A stretch of 12,483 nt of DNA from a virus (taxonomy: Duplodnaviria; Heunggongvirae; Uroviricota; Caudoviricetes), in the IMG/VR virus record IMGVR_UViG_2636415477_000012; one strand, given 5' to 3'. Positions 2,008 through 12,483 of this stretch are shown here, one piece after another. The notes beneath the pieces are model-generated. The model was not told the origin of the DNA. It saw only the letters and a program-made list of their open reading frames with translations, and searched no databases. Made by a program: the position numbers and the translations under genes. Positions within the stretch are counted from its first letter, which is position 1. Every line of letters starts with the position of its first letter.

Positions 2008-2018
2008 TCCTTAATACC

Positions 2019-2435
2019 CGTCATGTTAACTGTGTGGAGGGTAACACCACGCTTTATGCCCTGCCGAAACCCGAGGTTGTCCTGCGCTGGCGTGAGCAGA
2101 CCACAGATGACTTCCGCTTCTGTTTTAAGTTTCCGGCGACCATTTCGCATCAGGCAGCATTACGGCATTGCGATGATTTAGTGACTGAATTTTTGACCCG
2201 CATGTCACCGTTGGCTCCGCGCATTGGACAATACTGGCTGCAACTGCCTGCCACATTCGGCCCACGGGAGCTGCCTGCGCTTTGGCATTTTCTCGATTCT
2301 CTTCCCGGTGAATTTAATTATGGGGTGGAAGTCCGCCATCCACAGTTTTTCGCCAAAGGGGAAGAGGAACAAACGCTTAATCGCGGTTTACATCAGCGCG
2401 GCGTTAATCGGGTGATTTTTATTAGACACGTTTAA
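2019..2435 (+). pseudogene. yecE: Internal fragment of a DUF72-family (yecE-like) chromosomal gene, lacking its 5' end and with a divergent 3' end
   Basis: Translation VEGNTTLYALPKPEVVLRWREQTTDDFRFCFKFPATISH carries the DUF72 motifs (VE.N.TFY..P and FRF.FK....H). No upstream start or N-terminal region is present; after ...GVNRVI (about 2415) the frame runs into AT-rich sequence and stops at 2433-2435. Flanked by int on the left and the serine recombinase on the right. Confidence 0.55.
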
Positions 2436-2459
2436 ATACACTACCTAAAGCGATACAAT
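2431..2459 (+). promoter_or_regulatory. Candidate sigma70-like promoter for the serine recombinase gene
   Basis: TTTAAA (2431-2436), 17-bp spacer, TACAAT (2454-2459), about 30 bp upstream of the ATG at 2488 with GAGGTGG Shine-Dalgarno. Hexamer match only. Confidence 0.25.
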
Positions 2460-2487
2460 CTAGGTATCAGTTTTGAGGTGGTAAACA

Positions 2488-3747
2488 ATGAAACGTGTCA
2501 TTTCTTACATCCGGTTTTCATCTGAGAAGCAATCCCGAGGTGATTCATTACGCCGACAATCTAAGATGGTTACAGATTGGCTTAAGGCTCATCCTGAGTA
2601 CTACCTTGACCAAGACTTATCTTTTCGTGATTTGGGGGTGAGTGGATTCACTGGTAAGCACTTGAAAGGTGGCTTAGGTGACTTCTTAACCGCTATCGAG
2701 AAAGGGCTTGTTAAAGCTGGTGATACGCTCTTGATAGAATCTCTTGACCGTTTGTCACGCCAGAACGTAGACCGAGCAAGTGAGCTATTACGAAACATTC
2801 TTCGCTCTGGTGTAGATGTAGTCACCTTGTCCGATGGTGAACATTACACACGAGAATCTCTTAAAGACCCGTTAGCTCTGATTAAAAGCATTCTGATAAT
2901 GCAGCGGTCGCATGAGGAGAGTTTGAGGAAGTCTGAGCGTATACAAGGTGCATGGAACCGTAAAAAAGAACTCATCTCTGAAGGTATCAAGATTTCTAAA
3001 CGTTGTCCTGCATGGCTTAAGCTTAATGATGACCGTAAAAGCTTCTCTGTGATACCTGAGAAAGTAGAGACTGTGAAGAGGTGCTTTCAGCTACGGTTAG
3101 AGGGCAAATCTATCTGGGAGATTGTCAGGACTCTTAATGATGAAGGTCACCAGACACTTAACCAGTACAAAGCAGGTAAGTTTGGTCAAACCTCAGTGCA
3201 AGACCTTCTGAAGAATCGCTCTGTAATTGGTTACTTCACACCTAAAGGCTGTGAAGAGATTTCAGGTTATTACCCTGCAATTATAGATGAAACAATATTC
3301 TACAAAGTCCAGCAACTATCATATTCTCGTTATGGAAGAAAGCCTGCTTCAGATAAACCATTGAGCGTGAATCTTTTCAAAGGGGTTATCCGTTGTTCTG
3401 AATGTGGTCATGCTCTGATTATCACAGGCTTTAGCGATACAAGAAACGGGATTTATCGTTGTCCTCTTCGTAATGAAAACCGTTGTAGTGCTAAAGGACT
3501 TTCACGTAAGCAAACCGATGGTACATTGCTTACTCTGCTATCTCGTCTTGACCGATTTGATAGCGATACGACGAATATCATAGATATGTTGAGGCTACAC
3601 CGTGAACACATCTCAAGCAATATTGAAAAGCTGGTACAGCTATCACTTGAAATTGAAGATTTGTCAGCTGCGTATTTTCATGAAAGGAGATCACTCAATA
3701 ACTTCCATCGAGATCGGGTAATAACATTTGAACAGATCGCTGAATAA
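2488..3747 (+). CDS. Large serine recombinase (serine integrase), N-terminal ~397 aa native; the last ~22 codons and the stop lie inside the IS21-family left end
   Basis: Resolvase-type catalytic N-terminus VISYIRFSSEKQSRGDSLRRQ (Ser nucleophile), recombinase domain, Cys-rich zinc-ribbon CSECGH...YRCPLRNENRC, then the start of a coiled coil. The ORF continues from 3681 to 3747 through the GATC/AATAAC repeats that form the IS end. Confidence 0.85.
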   Translation: MKRVISYIRFSSEKQSRGDSLRRQSKMVTDWLKAHPEYYLDQDLSFRDLGVSGFTGKHLKGGLGDFLTAIEKGLVKAGDTLLIESLDRLSRQNVDRASELLRNILRSGVDVVTLSDGEHYTRESLKDPLALIKSILIMQRSHEESLRKSERIQGAWNRKKELISEGIKISKRCPAWLKLNDDRKSFSVIPEKVETVKRCFQLRLEGKSIWEIVRTLNDEGHQTLNQYKAGKFGQTSVQDLLKNRSVIGYFTPKGCEEISGYYPAIIDETIFYKVQQLSYSRYGRKPASDKPLSVNLFKGVIRCSECGHALIITGFSDTRNGIYRCPLRNENRCSAKGLSRKQTDGTLLTLLSRLDRFDSDTTNIIDMLRLHREHISSNIEKLVQLSLEIEDLSAAYFHERRSLNNFHRDRVITFEQIAE

Positions 3748-3780
3748 CATCGATGGAGATCACTTTTGACTCATTTTGTT
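3689..3780. repeat. Four phased 23-bp subterminal repeats at the IS left end, each starting with GATC
   Basis: GATC at 3689, 3712, 3735 and 3758 (exact 23-bp spacing). AATAAC at 3697, 3720 and 3743, i.e. in the first three units (same spacing). Unit 1 versus unit 3 match at 18/23 positions. Confidence 0.6.
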
Positions 3781-3861
3781 ATTCAGTGATCTCCATCAAT
3801 GTTATTGGAACTTCACAGGTGTGTTGATCTGTATCTTTTGCCATTCCGGTAAAGGATACCT

Positions 3862-5403
3862 ATGCCAACAGTTCCAATTTCTATGAGAAAACTTAAAGAA
3901 ATTCTTAGGCTTAAATACGGTGTTGGACTCAGCCATCGACAAATTGGTCGTAGTCTTGCAATCTCCCCTTCCGTTGTATCCAGATATGCTAATCGGGCGG
4001 CTCAACTTGGCATAAAGCAGTGGCCCTTACCTACAGGATGGGATGATACAAAACTAAAACATGCGTTCCTTCAGACCCAGGTTAAGATGAAGAAGCACTC
4101 TCTGCCTGACTGGGCTACAGTACACCGGGAACTGCGTAATAAATGCGTGACGCTGCAGCTACTCTGGGAAGAATACTGTGAGCGTAATCCAGGCGGTTTT
4201 TACAGCTATAACCATTACTGCCGGATGTACCGTGAATGGCTCAAAACCACTTCACCATCAATGCGTCAGGTACATAAAGCTGGCGAAAAACTTTTCGTTG
4301 ATTACTGTGGACCTACCGTTGGCGTTACCGACCCTGAGACCGGAGAAATAAGAACTGCTCAGGTCATCGTAGCTGTTCTCGGGGCATCAAGTTACACATG
4401 GGCAGAGGCCACCTGGTCTCAGCAGCTTGAAGACTGGGTGATGAGTCATGTTCGCTGCTTCCAGTGGTTGGGTGGCGTTCCTGAACTTGTTGTTCCGGAC
4501 AATCTGAAAAGCGCCACATCCAGGGCATGTAAGTATGATCCTGACGTTAACCCTACCTACCAGCAGATGCTTGAGCATTATAATGTCGCAGTTTTGCCTG
4601 CGCGGCCACGTAAACCGAAAGATAAAGCCAAAGCTGAAGTTGGCGTTCAGGTTGTTGAACGCTGGATCATGGCCCGAATCAGGCATGAGATCTTCTACAG
4701 CCTTGCATCGCTTAATCAGCGCATTCGGGAGTTGCTGGAAAGACTGAATAACAAAATAATGCAGAAGTTGGGTTATTCACGTGCAGAACTCTTCATCCAG
4801 CTTGATAAACCCGCACTGAAGCCTCTTCCTGAAGCCAGTTACAGTTACACCCTGGTGAAGAAAGTCAGAGTTCATGCCGATTACCACGTGGAAATCGACA
4901 AACATTACTACTCGGTTCCATGTTCGCTGTTAGGCCAGCAACTGGAAGCATGGATCTCCGGAGAACTGGTAAGACTCTTCAATCAGGGGCAGGAGGTTGC
5001 TGTGCACCCGCGCAAGCGTACTTATGGCTACAGTACCCGCAACGAGCACATGCCTGAAGCTCATCGACAGCATGCCACCTGGACGCCAGAGCGTCTTCTG
5101 GAATGGGCGGGGCACATAGGCAGTGAAACTCATAGTTATGTGCTTCATATACTGAACTCTCGTCCACATCCGGAACAAAGCTATCGCTTCTGCCTTGGAC
5201 TCCTGAACCTTCATAAAAAATACAGTAAAGCCAGACTTAATGCAGCATGTGCAAGAGCTCTGAAAACAAAGGTATGGCGTCTGTCAGGTATTAAATCGAT
5301 CCTGGAAAAAGGTCTGGATAAACAACCTGTTCAGGATCCAAAACCAGATCTGTTATCCACGATGGAACACGAAAACGTACGCGGCAGTGAGTATTACCAC
5401 TGA
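3862..5403 (+). CDS. istA: IS21-family transposase IstA
   Basis: 513-aa ORF with N-terminal helix-turn-helix region (LSHRQIGRSLAISPSVVSRY) and DDE-type core segments (LFVDYCG ... VVPDNLKSA ... KAKAE); immediately followed by istB. Confidence 0.9.
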   Translation: MPTVPISMRKLKEILRLKYGVGLSHRQIGRSLAISPSVVSRYANRAAQLGIKQWPLPTGWDDTKLKHAFLQTQVKMKKHSLPDWATVHRELRNKCVTLQLLWEEYCERNPGGFYSYNHYCRMYREWLKTTSPSMRQVHKAGEKLFVDYCGPTVGVTDPETGEIRTAQVIVAVLGASSYTWAEATWSQQLEDWVMSHVRCFQWLGGVPELVVPDNLKSATSRACKYDPDVNPTYQQMLEHYNVAVLPARPRKPKDKAKAEVGVQVVERWIMARIRHEIFYSLASLNQRIRELLERLNNKIMQKLGYSRAELFIQLDKPALKPLPEASYSYTLVKKVRVHADYHVEIDKHYYSVPCSLLGQQLEAWISGELVRLFNQGQEVAVHPRKRTYGYSTRNEHMPEAHRQHATWTPERLLEWAGHIGSETHSYVLHILNSRPHPEQSYRFCLGLLNLHKKYSKARLNAACARALKTKVWRLSGIKSILEKGLDKQPVQDPKPDLLSTMEHENVRGSEYYH

Positions 5404-5414
5404 TACGGGATCCA

Positions 5415-6164
5415 ATGATGAATCATCTTTACGAACAACTGACCGCACTTAAACTCACCGGCTTCCGTGATGCGCTTAAAAAGCAACTTGCTCAGCCGGG
5501 CACATACCAGGAGCTGGGCTTCGAAGAACGCCTGTCATTACTGACAGCAGAAGAACTAACCTGCCGTGAAAACAGGAAGGCAGAGCGTCTGATCAAACAT
5601 GCACGGTTCAGACTTAATGCTGAGTTATCAAAGCTGGATTATCGTAACAATAGAGGGCTGGACAGGGCCCTCATCCGTTCACTCAGTCAGGGAAACTGGT
5701 TAACCCTGAAACAAAATATTTTACTGACCGGGGCCACCGGCAGCGGTAAAACGTTCCTGGCATGTGCACTTGGTCATAATGCCTGCCGACAGGGATACAA
5801 GGTCTACTATTATCGCCTTAAAGCGCTGATGGAACAGTGCTATCAGGGGCATGCTGATGGAAGATACAGCAAACTTTTGACCAGGCTGAATAATAGCGAT
5901 CTGCTGCTTCTGGATGACTGGGGGCTGGAACCTCTCTCATCAGAACAGCGTAGCGACCTGCTGGAAATAGTGGATCTGATGTACCAACGAGGCTCAATCA
6001 TCGTAGTGAGCCAGTTGCCGGTGGAAAACTGGTACAAAATGATCGGAGACTCCACACATGCGGATGCCATCCTAGATCGACTGGTTCATGGCAGTATCAA
6101 GATCGAACTTAAAGGAGAATCAATGCGGAAAATACAATCTCCGTTGACCGAAGGAGATCAGTGA
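5415..6164 (+). CDS. istB: IS21-family ATP-binding helper protein IstB
   Basis: 249-aa ORF with Walker A GATGSGKT and Walker B LLLLDDWG; starts 12 bp after the istA stop. Confidence 0.9.
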   Translation: MMNHLYEQLTALKLTGFRDALKKQLAQPGTYQELGFEERLSLLTAEELTCRENRKAERLIKHARFRLNAELSKLDYRNNRGLDRALIRSLSQGNWLTLKQNILLTGATGSGKTFLACALGHNACRQGYKVYYYRLKALMEQCYQGHADGRYSKLLTRLNNSDLLLLDDWGLEPLSSEQRSDLLEIVDLMYQRGSIIVVSQLPVENWYKMIGDSTHADAILDRLVHGSIKIELKGESMRKIQSPLTEGDQ

Positions 6165-6200
6165 AGGTAATTTAAAAACGGTTCTGTGAAAGTGACACGA

Positions 6201-6237
6201 ACCGATCTCCATCGATGTTACTCACCGATCTCCTTCA
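6201..6237. repeat. IS right terminal inverted repeat with two phased GATC units
   Basis: GATC at 6204 and 6227 (23-bp spacing); the reverse complement matches the left-end units, including the perfect 17-mer gatctccatcgatgtta at 6204-6220. Confidence 0.6.
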
Positions 6238-6243
6238 CGGTAA

Positions 6244-6597
6244 TACGCATCAGCTATTACCAGCAAGCTAAAACAACTAAAGAATGAGCTATCACAGGTT
6301 GATGCGGATATCGAGAAGGAGACACAACGCCTTAAATCTATTGATGTGGGTTGTTTGTCTGATTGTGACTTGACTACAAAGGCGGGAAGGATTGAAGCAC
6401 AACTGATAATCAAAAGTGCTGTTAAAGAGGTCGTTTTAAATACTGCTAAACGTCGCTGTAAAGTGACTTTTCACAATGGTAGAGCAATCACCTTACCAAT
6501 AACAGAAAACCCCTCAGAGGACGTTACAGAGGCTATACAGTCGCTTTCTGAGGTCACTGAGAGGGGTTTAATAGATGTTGATGAGGTTATCATATAG
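6244..6597 (+). pseudogene. Probable C-terminal remnant of the interrupted large serine recombinase (coiled-coil region); has no ATG start
   Basis: Open frame from just after the TAA at 6241-6243 to the TAG at 6595-6597 translates to YASAITSKLKQLKNELSQVDADIEKETQRLKSID...; same strand and same reading-frame phase (position mod 3) as the recombinase; heptad-like charged sequence. The ORF track lists only a GTG-initiated part (6346-6597). Confidence 0.45.
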
Positions 6598-6611
6598 TTG
6601 AGATTCTATCG

Positions 6612-7385
6612 TCAGTATCGCTTGTTAGGATTAACAGAATACTTCTTCAAAGTACTACCTGTACCAGCATTATTAAGCACCTTTGAAGCTTGCTCATTAG
6701 CGGCATCTGAGAAGGTGCTTTTTCCGTTCTTAACTCTGACATTTTTACCACAATTGATACGGGCTTGAAGTTGCTCATTAGTAAGTTCACTCGTAGAGCG
6801 ATTATATAGCTCCTGACACATCAACATACCGTTACCTAAGCTTGTCGTAGTGTTCCCTGTATTCTTTTTACTGGTAGCACCACCATCACTTGTGGTAGAA
6901 GTCCTTCCGGTCGCAGCCGAGATATCAGTCTGACCCACAATAGCTTTAAAGTTAATTTCCTGAAAAGTTAATTGGATTCTAAGACCATTGGCAATACCAA
7001 CATCTTTAGAGGCTTTAAAGTTTGTAATAATTGAGTCGTCAATCTTAATACCATCTTTACAGACAACTGAGATAATTTGCTTCTGGTCACGCCAGTTTTC
7101 AAGAGTGTCTATGAAGTTTTCCACCAGCTTATTATCTCTTGAGATAAGGATACTACCGGATTCACCAACCACAACCACACCACTGATTGAAATAGTTCTT
7201 GGTGAACGCATTACATTATCTGTTACAGTCTGCCCTGATTGCATATTTTGAGTGGTAACCATCATAGGGCTGTCAAATTCCATGTTTTCAGTTGCTGATA
7301 GTGACAAGAAATTATCTGGTTGGCCTTGTAGATGGAAGTAAACGCCATCTTTACCACTGTAACGAAGCTGATTAGTGTAAATCAT
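6612..7385 (-). CDS. Hypothetical protein (257 aa) directly downstream of the tape-measure-domain gene; possibly tail-associated
   Basis: ORF-track entry 6612-7406 begins at a TTG. I prefer the in-frame ATG at 7385 (MIYTNQLRY...), preceded by AAGGAG 6 nt upstream. Ser/Thr/Gly-rich C-terminal half. No recognisable catalytic motif. Confidence 0.6.
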
Positions 7386-7460
7386 TAAATTCTCCTTTGA
7401 TTTCAAAGGCTTAGTGTATTTTAATCATTTTTAACCAAGCCTTTGATATATAAGTGTTTT

Positions 7461-7535
7461 CTCTGCTAAGCGTGTTGTACGTAAATTCTATTTTTCAGTG
7501 TGGGTATTAGCTTTACAGATTTCACGTAGCACACG
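7461..7535. repeat. Copy 1 of a ~75-bp conserved intergenic direct repeat, upstream of the 257-aa gene
   Basis: About 90% identical to 9691-9766; the conserved core cgtaaattctatttttcagtgtgg(g/a)tattagctttacagatttca(c/t)gtagcacac is read directly from the sequence. Sits 14 bp after the stop of the 709-aa gene and about 75 bp before the ATG at 7385. Confidence 0.85.
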
Positions 7536-7548
7536 GATATATAAGAAA

Positions 7549-9678
7549 TCATTCTTCCTCTGGATAGCTTGAACTTAAGAGCATATCCTGCGTGAACTGG
7601 TCATTAGCCGATTGACTGAAATTAAAGAAAGCTGGTTCATCCGGTCTAACAGTTGCTTCACCAGTGATATTAACTGACAAGGGCTTCTTAGCTTCTACTG
7701 TTAAAGCATCAACCTTGCGTGATAGTTCACTAATAGTCATTGCAAGTTGAGCATTGCTATTAACCATGTCACCTGTGATAGCTGGTGTAGTTGATTGTGT
7801 GTTATTAACAAGGTTACTCATTGGCTCTTGGAAGTTAGCAATTTTATTAGCTGCACCATTAAACCAGTCAGCGATAGAACTACCAATCTTAGCCCATCCA
7901 TCATTAATTTGGTTTGGTGTAGAATCGCCTTTGTATTCAGGGTTGAAGTTTGTCTCTGTTCCAATACCTGATTGATGTAAGTTCGGATTCTTAGCTGCTT
8001 CAGGGTTTAAATTATCAAGAGCAAAGTTTACCAACTCAGCATAAAGGACAACTCTACCGACTTTACTTAGCGCACCACCTGAAGAACCAGCCTTGCCAGC
8101 TTTAGCTTTATTAACAGCGTCACCGAATGAAGTAACAGCGTTTGCAAGGTTTAACAAGCCTCCTGCTACATTTGCAGCCTTTTGAGCAGTAACAGCTACG
8201 GCAAGCATCTTCAAACCATCAATTAACCCATCAGATAAACCATCAACAATTTTTTTCTGAGTGTCATTTAGTGAACGGTAAGCTAATGTCACCTCATCGA
8301 AGAACGCTCTTACCCTGTAACTGATATCAGTCAGGCTATCCACACCACTTGACATAGAAGTCATGAGACTACCAAGAGATTCACCAAGACTCTTACCGCT
8401 TCCACCTAAACTGTTTAAAAGCGTTGTTAGGCTTCTTGTAAAATCTTGCAGACCATTTTCAGAACCTCTAAAAATATCCGTTAATGAGTTATTCCAGGTA
8501 TTCTTTAAGTTCCCTAACATTGTCTGCGTAGAGTCCTGAATAGCTTTCCAGCCACCTCTGGAATTAATCTGTGAACCAAGTTCTTTAGCAAATTTAGGAA
8601 GTGCATCAGAGGCTTTAACATCACCATTTTTCATCTTATCGAAAAGCTGTTTTTCAGTCAGACCTAAAGCCTTTGCAAATGCCTGAGTAGCACCCGGTAA
8701 AGCTTCAGATAGTTGCCCCTTCAACTCCTCAGCCATCACCTGACCCTTAGAAGCCATCTGTGACACTGCGGTTAATGCTCTTTGAATCTGCTCATCTGAA
8801 CGACCCATTAAACGAGCATAACCTGTAAGGTTTTTAAATAACTCTTCTGACCCTTCAAGACCCATCGTAGTCGTTGCACTTGCACCAAATGAAGCAAATT
8901 GCGCTTGTGTTTCGGTTGTGTCCATACCAGTAATTTTAGTTAAATCTTGAATGAACTTTTTAACCTGTGTACTTTGGTCACCGAATACGAAATCAATACT
9001 TCTTTCCGATGATGCACGCTGTAAACCAACTTCCATTACTCGCTGATAAGCGGATAGTACAGCCTGAAAGCTGATAAATGCACCTGCTGTTTTCACTGCT
9101 ACTGAACTTAAATTATCAAGAGAACTAGCTGCTTTGTCACTATTAATGCTGGTGGATGTATGACCTCTGGCTTTAGCAATTGCTTCTCGTACACTTGAAT
9201 TTAGTTTAGCAAGGGCTTCATTAAATTTTGAATTATCCATTGACCCAGCTTTAGCAGATAGCCCGTAAAACTGACTCTTAATGTATTTCTCGACAATTGG
9301 GTTAAGACCTTTTAGCTTAGACATATTCGCTGAATAAGCTGCTGTGATTGCTCTGTTGCCGCTAATTCGTGGCTGTCTTGGCTGTCTAAGTGGCTTTAAA
9401 GTATCCTCAATTTCCGTTTTAATCTTAAACGCTCTAGTGTTTTTAAGACGCTGCTCAATCTTGTCAAAGGTCTTATTAAACTTCCTTTCAAGTTGCCCTA
9501 AAGAACTTGTCAGATTGCTGTCAAGTTGCTTGGTATCGACCTTAAACGCTCTATTCAAATTACGTTCAATTCTTTGTGCTGACTGCAAAGCTGCCTTTTC
9601 AACTCTTTGCAAGCCCTTAATAACGTTCTCGCTGAAGCCTAGCTCAACGATAAAACTATCAACTGTGAATTTGCTCAT
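7549..9678 (-). CDS. Tape-measure-domain protein (709 aa), phage tail tape-measure-like
   Basis: ATG at 9678 with AAGAGGTGA Shine-Dalgarno and an in-frame stop immediately upstream. Segment ELKGQLSEALPGATQAFAKALGLTEKQLFDKMKNGDVKASDALPKFAKELG matches the pattern of phage tape-measure domains as I recall it. Long helical, Gly/Ser/Ala-rich regions (GSGKSLGESLGSL, AGKAGSSGGALSKVG). Confidence 0.7.
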   Translation of the reverse strand: MSKFTVDSFIVELGFSENVIKGLQRVEKAALQSAQRIERNLNRAFKVDTKQLDSNLTSSLGQLERKFNKTFDKIEQRLKNTRAFKIKTEIEDTLKPLRQPRQPRISGNRAITAAYSANMSKLKGLNPIVEKYIKSQFYGLSAKAGSMDNSKFNEALAKLNSSVREAIAKARGHTSTSINSDKAASSLDNLSSVAVKTAGAFISFQAVLSAYQRVMEVGLQRASSERSIDFVFGDQSTQVKKFIQDLTKITGMDTTETQAQFASFGASATTTMGLEGSEELFKNLTGYARLMGRSDEQIQRALTAVSQMASKGQVMAEELKGQLSEALPGATQAFAKALGLTEKQLFDKMKNGDVKASDALPKFAKELGSQINSRGGWKAIQDSTQTMLGNLKNTWNNSLTDIFRGSENGLQDFTRSLTTLLNSLGGSGKSLGESLGSLMTSMSSGVDSLTDISYRVRAFFDEVTLAYRSLNDTQKKIVDGLSDGLIDGLKMLAVAVTAQKAANVAGGLLNLANAVTSFGDAVNKAKAGKAGSSGGALSKVGRVVLYAELVNFALDNLNPEAAKNPNLHQSGIGTETNFNPEYKGDSTPNQINDGWAKIGSSIADWFNGAANKIANFQEPMSNLVNNTQSTTPAITGDMVNSNAQLAMTISELSRKVDALTVEAKKPLSVNITGEATVRPDEPAFFNFSQSANDQFTQDMLLSSSYPEEE

Positions 9679-9690
9679 TCATATTTTTCA

Positions 9691-9766
9691 CCTCTTTAAG
9701 CGTGAGCTACGTAAATTCTATTTTTCAGTGTGGATATTAGCTTTACAGATTTCATGTAGCACACAT
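9691..9766. repeat. Copy 2 of the ~75-bp conserved intergenic direct repeat, immediately upstream of the tape-measure-domain gene
   Basis: Same orientation as copy 1. Its promoter-distal end supplies the Shine-Dalgarno (cttaaagagg on the - strand) 12 bp before the ATG at 9678. Confidence 0.85.
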
Positions 9767-9768
9767 AC

Positions 9769-9809
9769 AAAAAAAGGAGAAACTACCGATGTCACTCGAT
9801 AATCTCTCC
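9769..9809 (-). terminator. Candidate intrinsic terminator after the 71-aa gene
   Basis: On the - strand: stem GGAGAGA / TTTCTCC (one mismatch; + strand arms 9776-9782 and 9803-9809), ~20-nt loop, followed by seven T (A-run 9769-9775 on +). The loop is large, so it is weak. Confidence 0.35.
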
Positions 9810-9859
9810 CCGTACTATAGATTCGATAGAACCTATCTCATACACCCAACCAATCTTTT

Positions 9860-10075
9860 TTAATGCCTGACAAGATAATGTAGTTCCGTTTCACCTATGA
9901 TTTGAGCATCAGAAGGGATACGGTCAATACACCATTTTGGAATCTTGCGTGTTTTTGGTTTGCGTGAGGTGATAATTTGATGTTTGGTTTTAATTCTTAA
10001 GGCTGGCTTAGTTTGTAACTTTAAGTTTTCACAAACAGACTTAATAGTTTCATAGCGTTCTGTTAAATCAATCAT
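9860..10075 (-). CDS. Hypothetical small basic protein (71 aa)
   Basis: ORF-track entry; ATG at 10075 with GAGGTGA Shine-Dalgarno 4 nt upstream; Lys/Arg-rich; 22 bp after the stop of the upstream gene. Confidence 0.5.
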   Translation of the reverse strand: MIDLTERYETIKSVCENLKLQTKPALRIKTKHQIITSRKPKTRKIPKWCIDRIPSDAQIIGETELHYLVRH

Positions 10076-10097
10076 TCATCACCTCACATATGCATAA

Positions 10098-10802
10098 TTA
10101 AACAGCCTTGCTAAATTCTCGTGGAACACTCAGAAAATCATTGAAGCTGATAATCTGTGCCAACTCTTGACGGTACTCCTTAGCCAGCGCTTGATGGTCA
10201 CTAATCAGCTTAGCCAGTCTTGATTTCAGCAAATTAATCTCATTTTCTCTTGCTTTCATCAGTTTCTCTTTGGCAATTTCTTCAAGCTCAGCTTGTGATT
10301 TATCAGCAACAATTAGAGACAGTCGATGTGGTGCTCTGACAGCTCTTTCGGTGCGAACAACTCTTTGACCTTCTGGTAAATCTGCAATCACTTTACCAAT
10401 CTCTACAGGGTCATACCCCCAACCGTCACGGTCTAGTCGAGAGAAATAAGCATAAGGATTGGTTTGAAGCTCCATCAAAATAGCCATTTCGTCAATTTCG
10501 TCTTCAAGCTTGGACTGAATTTTCTCGTAAACACTTCTCATTGCTTCTTGAGAGTCTTTAATAGCTTGGAAATATCGGCGTTGTAGCTTCAACTTCAAAT
10601 CAAGCTCACATTCCTCATTCATCGAAAAATCAATTTCAACTCTTGGAATCTCGAGTGGTTCTGGTGGAATATATGGACCTTTATTTACTTCGTGTGATTC
10701 CCGCCAAGCTCTATCAAAAGATTCACGCAAAGTTAATTCGTGAATATCAAGTGCACTTGGTTTGTTTTCGATAATCATTTCATGTTCATCACGGATAGAC
10801 AT
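10098..10802 (-). CDS. Hypothetical acidic coiled-coil protein (234 aa)
   Basis: ORF-track entry; ATG at 10802 with GAGGAAAA Shine-Dalgarno; Glu/Asp-rich helical sequence; no recognisable motif. Confidence 0.65.
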   Translation of the reverse strand: MSIRDEHEMIIENKPSALDIHELTLRESFDRAWRESHEVNKGPYIPPEPLEIPRVEIDFSMNEECELDLKLKLQRRYFQAIKDSQEAMRSVYEKIQSKLEDEIDEMAILMELQTNPYAYFSRLDRDGWGYDPVEIGKVIADLPEGQRVVRTERAVRAPHRLSLIVADKSQAELEEIAKEKLMKARENEINLLKSRLAKLISDHQALAKEYRQELAQIISFNDFLSVPREFSKAV

Positions 10803-10919
10803 TATTATTTTTCCTCTTCTAAGATAATTTATGTTTCAGTTTTTAAAAAGCACACCTGACAGCCTACGAACTTAGAAGAGACTTAAAAGGCGTTTGCCAA
10901 GTATGCTTTTTAAAAGCTG

Positions 10920-10964
10920 AAAAAAGCCCTAAACATAGGTTCATCCTTATCTGTAAAGGGCTTT
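10920..10964 (-). terminator. Hairpin followed by a T-run (terminator-like or structured RNA)
   Basis: Stem AAAGCCCT (10923-10930) / AGGGCTTT (10957-10964), 26-nt loop; on the - strand the 3' arm is followed by TTT then CAGC (run of six T counting the stem). Confidence 0.3.
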
Positions 10965-11024
10965 GAAGGTTTGCTTATAACGTTAACGAAGTTTCAGGAA
11001 AAACTTTCTTTAAAAGCTCTGTTT

Positions 11025-11062
11025 AAAAACTCTTAAAGAAAGCCCTAACTCATGATTAGGGC
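11025..11062 (-). terminator. Candidate intrinsic terminator downstream of the HNH/HTH/107-aa operon
   Basis: Stem GCCCTAA (11042-11048) / TTAGGGC (11056-11062), 7-nt loop; on the - strand it is followed by TTTCTTTAAGAGTTTTT. Confidence 0.4.
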
Positions 11063-11286
11063 AAAGCTGTAAGGGTTCAATAATGAATGATTAAGCACTT
11101 TTTGATATATAGCCTATCTAGTGGGCTAAATAGGCCATGTAGCGAAAAGCATTGCACCTTTCAGAATAACTATCCCTAGATGTAGATGGAATTGTTGAAA
11201 GAAATAAGAGAGAATTGCTCTCCCATACTTAAAATTATGACATATTTAAGGTTATTTGTCAACAGCTTTTTAACAGATTGGTAACA

Positions 11287-11364
11287 TTAATTCTTATTTA
11301 CCGTGTTACCTACCCAGCAACCAACAAATAAACCCAAAGCTGTCCAAGCAATTATTAAGCCCAT
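11287..11364 (-). CDS. Possible 25-aa hydrophobic peptide (MGLIIAWTALGLFVGCWVGNTVNKN)
   Basis: I translated it by hand. Its ATG overlaps the TAA stop of the upstream 107-aa gene (TAATG). Single predicted transmembrane-like stretch. No other support. Confidence 0.25.
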   Translation of the reverse strand: MGLIIAWTALGLFVGCWVGNTVNKN

Positions 11365-11687
11365 TAATGCACCACCTTCGAATCCGTAACCAAAATATTG
11401 TCAGCGTACAAAATTGCTATAGCTGCCTTGAGATATTTTTCAGGGCTAACGCTGTATTTGTTCGTTTGCTCGATAACCAATCTTTTCATGTTGCTGTCTT
11501 TAATTGGTAGCATCATTCGAGGCTCGTTAAACTCCACCGAGTGAATAAAGTCAGAGATGCTTTCCGCATTATCAGCCATTAACTCTAACAACTTATCAAA
11601 GTCAATGCTAACACCTACATCAGTGAAAGCCTGAATCATCATAGCGGTGTCGTTATCAACGAAAATTTGCATTGGGTGATTATTCAT
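11364..11687 (-). CDS. Hypothetical acidic protein (107 aa)
   Basis: ORF-track entry; ATG at 11687 with AGAGGAA Shine-Dalgarno about 8 nt upstream. Confidence 0.6.
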   Translation of the reverse strand: MNNHPMQIFVDNDTAMMIQAFTDVGVSIDFDKLLELMADNAESISDFIHSVEFNEPRMMLPIKDSNMKRLVIEQTNKYSVSPEKYLKAAIAILYADNILVTDSKVVH

Positions 11688-11765
11688 TTTTAAATTCCTC
11701 TAAAACACATCTTAAATCTGCCAAAATAGCCATTCTGAGGCCAGTAACCATGCGGGTTACAGAGG

Positions 11766-11812
11766 GAGTGAGACACCTTAGTAATAGGGTAGCTCATCTT
11801 TGAGTCTCACTC
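11766..11812. promoter_or_regulatory. 9-bp inverted repeat in the 137-bp intergenic region (possible operator or RNA structure)
   Basis: GAGTGAGAC (11766-11774) and its exact reverse complement GTCTCACTC (11804-11812), 29-bp spacer; no T-run follows, so not scored as a terminator. Confidence 0.3.
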
Positions 11813-11824
11813 ATTCTCACAGGC

Positions 11825-12211
11825 TTACACAGACGCTTTAATCTTGTAGTATTGACTACGTGATAAGCCGTATTTCTCAGAAATATAACTTTGTGATTGT
11901 CCTTTGGTGATTGCATCAATGATTAAATCTTTATTGTATCTGTTGCCATTGGTTTTGTGCTTGTCACCACTTTTAATAGAGTTGAAATTCTCAATTAATT
12001 TAATGGCGTCTTTAAGGTCGTCTTCGTAAGCATAATCAAAACCCCTGATAAACTCGAAATCACCATTATCTTTTTGTGCTTCAGCCCAGATATCAAATCT
12101 TGAGGCTAATTGCTGGTGGGTAAACTTGGGTTTATTGGTTTGTGTTACGTCCCTCCAGATTCTACCGTCAAATCTTACCAAATGGTCACGATGTTTATAA
12201 AAGTCATACAT
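11825..12211 (-). CDS. Hypothetical protein (128 aa from the ATG at 12211) with a C-terminal helix-turn-helix
   Basis: The ORF-track entry starts at a TTG (12244). I prefer the ATG at 12209-12211, which overlaps the upstream TAA (TAATG) and has GGAGG 5 nt upstream. C-terminal DLIIDAITKGQSQSYISEKYGLSRSQYYKIK resembles resolvase/transposase-type helix-turn-helix. Confidence 0.6.
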   Translation of the reverse strand: MYDFYKHRDHLVRFDGRIWRDVTQTNKPKFTHQQLASRFDIWAEAQKDNGDFEFIRGFDYAYEDDLKDAIKLIENFNSIKSGDKHKTNGNRYNKDLIIDAITKGQSQSYISEKYGLSRSQYYKIKASV

Positions 12212-12483
12212 TAAACCTCCTGTAGTAAGTTGTTTGGGTGGCAATTTCTTTTATTACCATCCTTGAAGATAATCTTTTTAGTTGCCTGAACTTCATGATG
12301 CAAAAACCAGATGACATACTTCAGATAATAATCACGAGTGCCATAACGAATCATTGGATTACCGTAAGCATCATCTCTTGTCTTAACCTCTCCGCCATCA
12401 ATCCATTCAAGCATTCCTGTTTCGTAATTAATCATGAAGTAAGTTGCAAAGAACCGTTTAATATCATCTCGCCATTGCTTCAT
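12211..12483 (-). CDS. HNH-endonuclease-like protein (HNH_3-type pattern); possibly 5'-partial at the window edge
   Basis: YGTRDYYLKYVIWFLHHE...IIFKDGNKRNCHPNNLL resembles the H...DGNK.NN..NL pattern of phage HNH endonucleases, but the usual His before DGN is replaced (FKD), so it may be degenerate. ORF starts at an ATG at the last base of the window. Confidence 0.45.
   Translation of the reverse strand: MKQWRDDIKRFFATYFMINYETGMLEWIDGGEVKTRDDAYGNPMIRYGTRDYYLKYVIWFLHHEVQATKKIIFKDGNKRNCHPNNLLQEV

Follow-up and report, generated by a model that had tools for sequence, protein, structure and literature searches.

The window analysed here (12,483 nucleotides of the caudoviral IMG/VR record IMGVR_UViG_2636415477_000012) begins with genes of a lambdoid prophage that occupies the 5' part of yecE, which provide context only: a DUF4222 gene (1-243), an excisionase gene (402-638) and, on the plus strand, a tyrosine integrase gene (694-2007), all assigned by Pfam. 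An internal fragment of yecE follows (2028-2419, plus strand; Pfam DUF72), corresponding to approximately nucleotides 88-479 of the gene in the alignment to K-12 yecE and lying between this prophage and a separate, second integrated element; the same tandem arrangement at yecE was found in 16 complete genomes. The left boundary of the second element is marked by the 7-bp attL core TGATTTT (2413-2419), which comprises the last bases common with intact yecE (about nucleotides 473-479) ahead of the island DNA, as determined by alignment to K-12 yecE and to an island-bearing genome and by comparison of attB, attL and attR. The start codon of a large serine recombinase (LSR) gene is located 68 bp from attL. 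Rfam and tRNA scans of the whole window found nothing, so that neither a tRNA-type attachment site nor a known RNA plays a part.

The LSR gene is interrupted by a full-length copy of the common insertion sequence ISEc12 (3669-6249, plus strand, 2581 bp); the original prediction had correctly placed the insertion in the IS21 family. The copy is about 100% identical, over positions 1-2581, to E. coli copies annotated as ISEc12 by PGAP, and has the terminal inverted repeats TGCGTATT... and ...AATACGCA with TG...CA termini, as well as repeated sub-terminal GGAGATC-type motifs at both ends. Both genes of the element are intact: istA (3862-5403, plus strand), encoding a 513-aa transposase with Pfam HTH, rve DDE core and Mu-transposase C-terminal (Mu-transpos_C_2) domains and so named by PGAP in other genomes, and istB (5415-6164, plus strand), encoding a 249-aa helper ATPase (Pfam IstB_IS21, E = 2e-67). 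The target-site duplication TCAGC, recognised in the sequence and in the alignment to the intact locus, occupies positions 3664-3668 and 6250-6254, and the left junction reads TTGTCAGC on the gene side and TGCGTATTTTCATG on the ISEc12 side. The two parts of the window's alignment to the intact locus overlap by 6 nt, precisely where they meet. A duplication of 6 bp (TCAGCT), which would put the first base of the IS at 3670, was rejected, since TGCG begins each of three independent ISEc12 copies, which agree in their ends and are flanked by 5-bp duplications.

The ORF at 2488-3747 encodes 419 aa and reaches its stop codon 79 nt inside ISEc12. Its gene-derived portion (2488-3668, plus strand) comprises codons 1-393 and two nucleotides of codon 394, whereas the remainder (3669-3747, plus strand) encodes 25 foreign residues (AYFHERRSLNNFHRDRVITFEQIAE) and the stop codon. 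As was predicted initially, this ORF carries the N-terminal catalytic, recombinase and zinc-ribbon regions of an LSR and ends within the left end of the IS: Pfam detects the Resolvase, Recombinase and Zn_ribbon_recom domains (PF00239 at residues 4-160, E = 1e-19; PF07508 at residues 190-277; PF13408 at residues 296-349), to which the structure model adds the first helix of a coiled coil. On the other side of the IS, an open stretch of frame 1 that lacks an ATG spans 6244-6597, in the same frame as the first ORF, as the original prediction had stated; given the IS boundaries and the target duplication, the gene-derived sequence resumes not at 6244 but at 6250, or at 6255 if one duplicate is left out. 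The 3' part proper (6255-6597, plus strand) runs from the last base of codon 394 to codon 507 and the stop codon and, according to the homologue comparison and the structure model, encodes the second coiled-coil helix and a C-terminal helix/beta domain. The IS together with one duplicate amounts to 2586 bp, a multiple of three, and both pieces are therefore in the same frame; excision of 3669-6254 joins 2488-3668 to 6255-6597 into a single ORF of 507 aa, slightly shorter than the approximately 515 aa expected earlier, though of normal size for an LSR. The reading frame is otherwise free of stops or frameshifts, and dN/dS against the intact alleles is 0.13-0.15, which together indicate that the gene was functional until recently.

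The repaired protein aligns without gaps, at 95% identity, to an intact E. coli recombinase of 507 aa (WP_219381098.1), so that both parts match consecutive regions of single intact proteins and the assignment of the downstream frame as the LSR C-terminal region holds. The homologues are 500-550 aa long, in the range of the LSR class (about 450-700 aa), and do not end at about 400 aa, where the truncated ORF would have been complete. The motif YIRFSSEKQ fits the catalytic signature YxRxSxxxQ, with Y7, R9, S11 and Q15 invariant in 55 homologues, and the zinc-ribbon cysteines C303, C306, C325 and C333 are nearly invariant. The YbcK-type LSRs of coliphages are 35% identical to the repaired protein across residues 1-492, and the best Foldseek matches are full-length serine integrases, including those of PhiC31, A118/LI and Bxb1. 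The correct annotation of 2488-6597 is one pseudogene rather than two ORFs.

The structural consequences of the insertion were considered on the AlphaFold model of P0001, a 94%-identical homologue (mean pLDDT 82, a confident model), and not of the window protein itself. In this model, which aligns over its full length to serine integrase structures, helices 364-386 and 393-422, connected by the loop 387-392, form a hairpin, and the break at 394/395 would accordingly fall at the tip of the coiled coil. A single transposition of ISEc12 cut the gene after codon 394, making the 5-bp target duplication and leaving an ORF of residues 1-394 followed by 25 IS-derived residues. Its product retains the catalytic serine and recombinase domains, the zinc ribbon with its four cysteines and one coiled-coil helix, the first, but is deprived of the second helix and the C-terminal domain; for this reason a loss of LSR function caused by ISEc12 is very likely, as far as the model allows us to judge. 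Where serine integrases have been characterised, it is the coiled coil that brings the att sites into synapsis and through which the recombination directionality factor controls the direction of the reaction. The truncated LSR should therefore be unable either to integrate or to excise, and it is plausible from the modelled break that the island is locked in the chromosome and passed on only vertically, unless the same integrase is supplied intact in trans. The original expectation of a probably inactivated integrase thus gains a structural argument, the break at the coiled-coil tip, and keeps its 'probably'.

The element harbouring the split gene is not a complete prophage; it proved to be an 11.3-kb island in E. 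coli yecE, whose only structural genes are those of a tape-measure and a Dit-like protein, both related to genes of virulent FelixO1-like phages. The Dit-like tail/baseplate protein (6612-7406, minus strand, 264 aa; Pfam PF21821, tblastn) is 68.5% identical to the protein that Felixounavirus pinkbiff encodes downstream of its tape-measure gene, and the N-terminal 478 aa of the tape-measure protein (7549-9678, minus strand, 709 aa; tblastn) are 30% identical to the Felixounavirus tape-measure protein. Neither capsid nor portal nor terminase genes were found in the island, and no recombination directionality factor was identified for it. Searches of PHROGs and Pfam with the small ORFs of 71, 234, 107, 139, 92 and 183 aa gave nothing convincing, most of the small ORFs matching no family of Pfam, PHROGs or PADLOC; PADLOC, run on ten island proteins, detected no defence system, only a weak and implausible ZorA match to the tape-measure protein. 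The opposite end of the island, which lies beyond the window, encodes a second, small serine recombinase of 182 aa. Within the window the island ORFs are intact and 100% identical to those in a second assembly. We also considered a decayed FelixO1-like prophage and rejected it, as tblastn of all island proteins against phage pinkbiff, covering about 71 kb of its 88.8 kb, yielded no matches besides the tape-measure and Dit-like genes.

One half of yecE lies on each side of the island, with intact attL and attR and a short core. The repaired attB junction in yecE reads GGGTGATTTTAGACAGCC and the circular attP junction of the island CCTTGATGATTTTTATTAGACACG, the reconstructed attP being dyad-symmetric (GTGTATTTA/TAAATACAC). 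Islands at other chromosomal sites have cargo 80-99% identical to that of the yecE island, whereas their LSRs are only 34% identical; the LSRs of yecE islands are at least 93% identical to each other. The type of LSR thus follows the integration site while the cargo is common, which by sequence comparison identifies the LSR as the integrase of the yecE island. We found no literature description of this LSR or of this island family; the literature on yecE concerns the lambdoid/Stx phages, which use a different, 21-bp attB.

The distribution of the alleles bears on how the interruption itself is to be understood. An uninterrupted junction is present in 193 complete E. coli genomes and the full-length gene in 191, and strain EC20-72C-1 is an example with an intact LSR; in a set of 5,426 complete genomes of E. 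coli, ISEc12 was never found at this site. That the two open frames are unrelated and stand side by side by chance is refuted by the uninterrupted loci and by the gapless colinearity with intact 507-aa proteins, the agreement being, at the sequence level, far beyond chance; nothing speaks for this reading after testing, and we consider its probability negligible. An assembly artefact, that is, a repeated IS misplaced into an intact gene, deserves slightly more attention, since ISEc12 is multi-copy (a median of three places per genome having it), such repeats often break short-read assemblies, and several draft contigs do end in ISEc12. Against it, both junctions are clean and carry the 5-bp duplication typical of ISEc12, an identical left junction with the 419-aa truncated product was found in at least five independent draft assemblies and two gut metagenomes, and a scaffold of GCA_002245075.1 matches the window across both junctions, with 99.8-100% identity; an artefact is in our opinion extremely improbable. 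At least 11 contigs with varying adjoining prophage content encode the identical truncated product, a pattern consistent with vertical inheritance after one insertion. As for the 95 genomes with only partial LSR matches, other disruptions were mostly rejected as the explanation, since most of these alleles are divergent or mosaic and bear the annotation of an intact recombinase; one case is real, namely the LSR orthologue of strain TUM1881, independently split by an IS3-family element.

Two further readings accept the insertion and deny its consequences. The split LSR might keep its function, either with the fragments expressed separately and reassembled or owing to occasional precise loss of the IS; indeed, both fragments are open and free of further mutations, ISEc12 is intact and presumably active, and the 3' fragment could in principle start at a weak GTG at 6346. 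This fragment, however, possesses neither an ATG nor an evident ribosome-binding site (Shine-Dalgarno sequence), its in-frame starts being only weak GTG/TTG codons well inside it, and the predicted break lies within a helical hairpin, not between domains; precise excision is not known as a regular pathway for IS21-family elements. We hold retained function to be very unlikely, if a little less so than an artefact. Somewhat more weight, though still little, should be given to the reading that the island was already immobile, or that the LSR is not its integrase but a domesticated recombinase or an invertase, in which case the IS would have had no effect on mobility. It draws on the lack of recognisable excision-control or replication genes in the island, on the second, small resolvase at its other end, and on the TUM1881 orthologue, according to which the gene could be dispensable. 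On the other hand, the LSR type tracks the integration site among islands with common cargo, attL and attR are intact and have a short core, the reconstructed attP shows dyad symmetry, and the dN/dS values among alleles point to selection on the protein; furthermore, only about 5% of the complete E. coli genomes have the island, which also occurs in several genera, a distribution which argues that it is mobile. This reading is improbable in our view. We regard it as highly probable that 2488-6597 is one LSR gene, the integrase of the 11.3-kb yecE island, interrupted by ISEc12, and that the island has been immobilised, with the loss of activity and the immobilisation inferred from the position of the break. 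In itself such a split is an ordinary, textbook knock-out of a mobile-element recombinase by an IS, which matters little, although it can serve to mark a lineage; of wider value is the host island with its tape-measure and Dit-like genes, which is a lead.

In comparison with the integrases of A118/LI, PhiC31 and Bxb1, the yecE LSR has the same domain order (resolvase with the YxRxS serine, recombinase, four-cysteine zinc ribbon and embedded coiled coil); like the characterised serine integrases it is about 500 aa long and encoded at the edge of its element beside an att site whose core is very short. Its sequence identity to the solved serine integrases is only 13-18%, rising to 35% with the YbcK-type LSR, its closest named coliphage relative, and it differs from the named serine integrases in its attB within yecE, in its host, an 11-kb island, and in being truncated here. 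The repaired LSR with the reconstructed attP and attB represents an uncharacterised serine integrase for a conserved site in yecE, possibly of interest to collectors of orthogonal integrases. The ISEc12 copy corresponds to those elsewhere in its 2581 bp, istA and istB, termini and 5-bp duplication. Inactivation of integrases of cryptic prophages and islands by IS elements is generally seen as prophages become domesticated and decay; the yecE island and the TUM1881 orthologue would be instances of the same knock-out, followed in the former by vertical inheritance, but unlike decaying prophages with an IS-hit integrase the island has, in the part covered by the window, no further signs of decay.

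As to the nature of the island, we tentatively suggest that it belongs to an undescribed family of approximately 11-kb elements of Enterobacteriaceae, which combine an LSR and a small resolvase with a tape-measure gene, in most cases a Dit-like gene, and variable cargo such as AbiTii, Dam or HNH, swap their LSRs according to site, have tail genes akin to those of strictly virulent FelixO1-like myoviruses, and could be either PLE-like satellites of these phages or defence islands against them that interfere with tail assembly, the window containing a natural integrase-null copy. We consider this proposal possible but doubtful. The PLE of Vibrio cholerae is an LSR-integrated satellite of the virulent myovirus ICP1. 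The yecE island as a whole, though not its split LSR, resembles it in being small, LSR-integrated, devoid of a full structural gene set and related in some genes to a virulent myovirus, and its 11.3 kb fit the range of integrase-bearing satellites without a complete virion gene set (about 7-20 kb). The yecE island differs in having no recognised replication or capsid-remodelling genes, and PLEs are not known for the pair of tape-measure and Dit genes that makes up its cargo. Should the island prove to be a satellite or a defence element, the Vibrio PLE-ICP1 system would gain a new counterpart in E. coli.

The original prediction described the ORFs at 2488-6597 correctly, judging by the six-frame ORF list and the Pfam domains. 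On the plus strand, the 419-aa ORF at 2488-3747 carries the Resolvase (PF00239), Recombinase (PF07508) and Zn_ribbon_recom (PF13408) domains of a large serine recombinase (LSR). It is followed on the same strand by istA (3862-5403, 513 aa, Pfam rve/Mu-transposase-C) and istB (5415-6164, 249 aa, Pfam IstB_IS21, E = 2e-67) of ISEc12, and the 3' LSR frame is open, again on this strand, until the stop at 6595-6597; neither an ATG nor a ribosome-binding site was found for this orphan part. The proposal that these are pieces of one split gene is borne out: removal of 3669-6254 yields a 1524-nt ORF of 507 codons, whose product aligns without gaps over all 507 residues, at 95% identity, to WP_219381098.1, the intact 'recombinase family protein' of Escherichia coli EC20-72C-1. 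At the DNA level, 2014-3669 and 6250-9700 fall on neighbouring parts of the EC20-72C-1 locus, and the 6-nt overlap between the two aligned pieces represents the target duplication. Homologues retrieved from a collection of 5.8 billion proteins are 500-550 aa long, and do not end near 400 aa. A 600-nt probe across the repaired junction revealed it uninterrupted in 193 complete E. coli genomes, with the entire gene contiguous in 191. Since the IS plus one duplicate amounts to 2586 bp, a multiple of three, both pieces remain in one frame; the truncated product has 394 residues in common with the native LSR, followed by 25 IS-encoded residues. The observed split is confirmed and its interpretation supported; coordinates, size and element type are corrected here.

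The ends of the IS, located by inverted-repeat search and direct reading, are TGCGTATT... starting at 3669 and ...AATACGCA finishing at 6249, and the direct repeat TCAGC flanks them on both sides (3664-3668 and 6250-6254). The 2581-bp element is ~100% identical, from the first to the last base, to elements annotated as 'IS21-like element ISEc12', and its termini recur in three independent copies, one in traG of a plasmid, one in a gene of a P2-like prophage and one in an adhesin gene of the chromosome (two of 2581 bp, the third of 2587 bp with frameshifted genes; 5-bp duplications TCTGC, TCACC and GACAG, one each). Because of this full-length identity and the agreement of the termini, the sequence identifies the insertion as a complete ISEc12 with intact istA and istB. 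The element is common, being present with query coverage of at least 80% in 1,366 of the 5,426 complete E. coli genomes. The four insertion sites, ttgTCAGC, ttgTCTGC, tgtgTCACC and gattGACAG (3655-3668 / 6250-6254 in the window and comparison loci L019, L020 and L021), are alike, which may point to a preferred target close to TGTC(A/T)(G/C)C; as a result of this similarity, BLAST matches to other ISEc12 copies overran the true IS end by a few bases.

As to the effect of the insertion, an AlphaFold model (55-sequence alignment, mean pLDDT 82) was made for P0001, an intact LSR homologue of equal length and 94% identity. It comprises, in this order, the catalytic domain, the long helix E, the recombinase domain, the zinc ribbon, a helical hairpin (helices 364-386 and 393-422, loop 387-392) and a small helix/beta C-terminal domain. 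The best Foldseek matches in the PDB were full-length serine integrases, including those of PhiC31, A118/LI and Bxb1, with ~535-600 columns aligned; the A118 integrase was also found by sequence search. Given the predicted position of the hairpin helices, the insertion after codon 394 would interrupt the coiled coil at its tip. Serine integrases that have been characterised depend on this motif for synapsis and for regulation by the directionality factor, and loss of LSR function is to be expected. The gene was probably functional until recently: repaired, it contains no further stop or frameshift, and its dN/dS against three intact alleles is 0.13-0.15, or 0.26-0.30 for the less divergent, short 3' part.

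A separate lambdoid prophage contributes its int-xis end as the first 2007 nt of the window, where Pfam recognises a DUF4222 gene, a DUF1233 excisionase (402-638) and a tyrosine integrase (694-2007). This prophage is integrated ~88 nt into yecE, in its 5' part, where Stx phages and other lambdoid phages also integrate (PMC8112680). A 392-bp yecE fragment (2028-2419) separates it from the second occupant of the gene; the same tandem is present in 16 complete E. coli genomes. According to the alignment with K-12 yecE, the last yecE-derived base is 2419, and the LSR start codon lies 68 bp beyond this boundary. In EC20-72C-1 the yecE halves are only ~11.5 kb apart and enclose the LSR, Dit-like and tape-measure genes, several small unknown ORFs and genes of an HTH protein, a Dam methylase and a small 182-aa resolvase, but no capsid, portal or terminase. 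The comparison indicates that the owner of the split LSR is a compact island of ~11.3 kb (IS subtracted) and not a prophage. It occupies 2420-12483 and runs ~3.8 kb past the window (L015 6208-10000; L003 37864-49395), its far end being known from the GCA_002245075.1 scaffold. Only TGATTTT is common to attB, attL and attR; the reconstructed attP contains the dyad GTGTATTTA/TAAATACAC.

Islands with the same gene order occupy two more E. coli sites, in the yciI/yciA region and beside wrbA. Their cargo is 80-99% identical to the window at the nucleotide level, whereas their LSRs share only 34% identity with the window LSR, against at least 93% among yecE islands. Since the LSR type goes with the integration site, comparison strongly supports the LSR as the integrase of the island. 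Related islands in Pluralibacter and Klebsiella likewise each carry a site-specific LSR; the Klebsiella relative is again in yecE, with an AbiTii gene aboard.

In outline, the island consists of LSR, Dit-like and tape-measure genes, small ORFs of unknown function, cargo that varies and a small resolvase. It also has two AT-rich ORF-free stretches, one at 10803-11363 (560 bp, ~34% GC), in which Rfam and tRNA scans gave no match, and another of ~1.3-1.9 kb beside the small resolvase, outside the window (L015 7272-9166); both are possible locations of an origin, of regulatory RNAs or of packaging signals. The 234-aa coiled-coil-rich protein encoded at 10098-10802 (minus strand) is labelled 'transposase' by PGAP in other genomes, which looks unfounded, as Pfam, PHROGs and PADLOC gave no match.

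ISEc12 occupies this LSR position in none of the 5,426 complete E. coli genomes. However, at least 11 contigs (five NCBI assemblies and two human-gut metagenomes) encode precisely the 419-aa truncated product, and the GCA_002245075.1 scaffold has the same allele (100% identical to 6041-12483 and 99.8% to 2014-3921). Lambdoid prophages, of two kinds, neighbour the locus on some of these contigs, and on others there is none; this pattern fits a single insertion that was passed on vertically, with a prophage later acquired at the neighbouring yecE attB. In TUM1881, with the same int-yecE'-LSR arrangement, the orthologous LSR is independently split at about codon 362 by an IS3-family element (L025 2489-5345), so IS elements have inactivated the island's integrase more than once.

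The knock-out of an integrase by an IS is an ordinary event, and this LSR and its attB, both uncharacterised, belong to a known family; the island family is of more interest than the split and stands as a lead. No description of such an island was found in the searchable literature, which is not proof of novelty. Its Dit-like gene (6612-7406, minus strand) encodes a protein 68.5% identical, over the full length, to the product of the gene that directly follows the tape-measure gene of Felixounavirus pinkbiff (80% over ~550 nt at the DNA level), and the N-terminal 478 aa encoded by its tape-measure gene (7549-9678, minus strand) are 30% identical to the pinkbiff tape-measure protein. The order of the two genes is the same in both; the remaining island proteins have no match in the ~71 kb searched of the 88.8-kb pinkbiff genome. 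FelixO1-like phages are strictly virulent myoviruses. This synteny and relatedness to genes of virulent phages suggest that the island might be a satellite of FelixO1-like phages or act by anti-phage/tail-assembly interference; PADLOC found no defence system among the island proteins. As an LSR-integrated island carrying tail genes of a virulent phage, it is reminiscent of the pairing of PLE and ICP1 in Vibrio.
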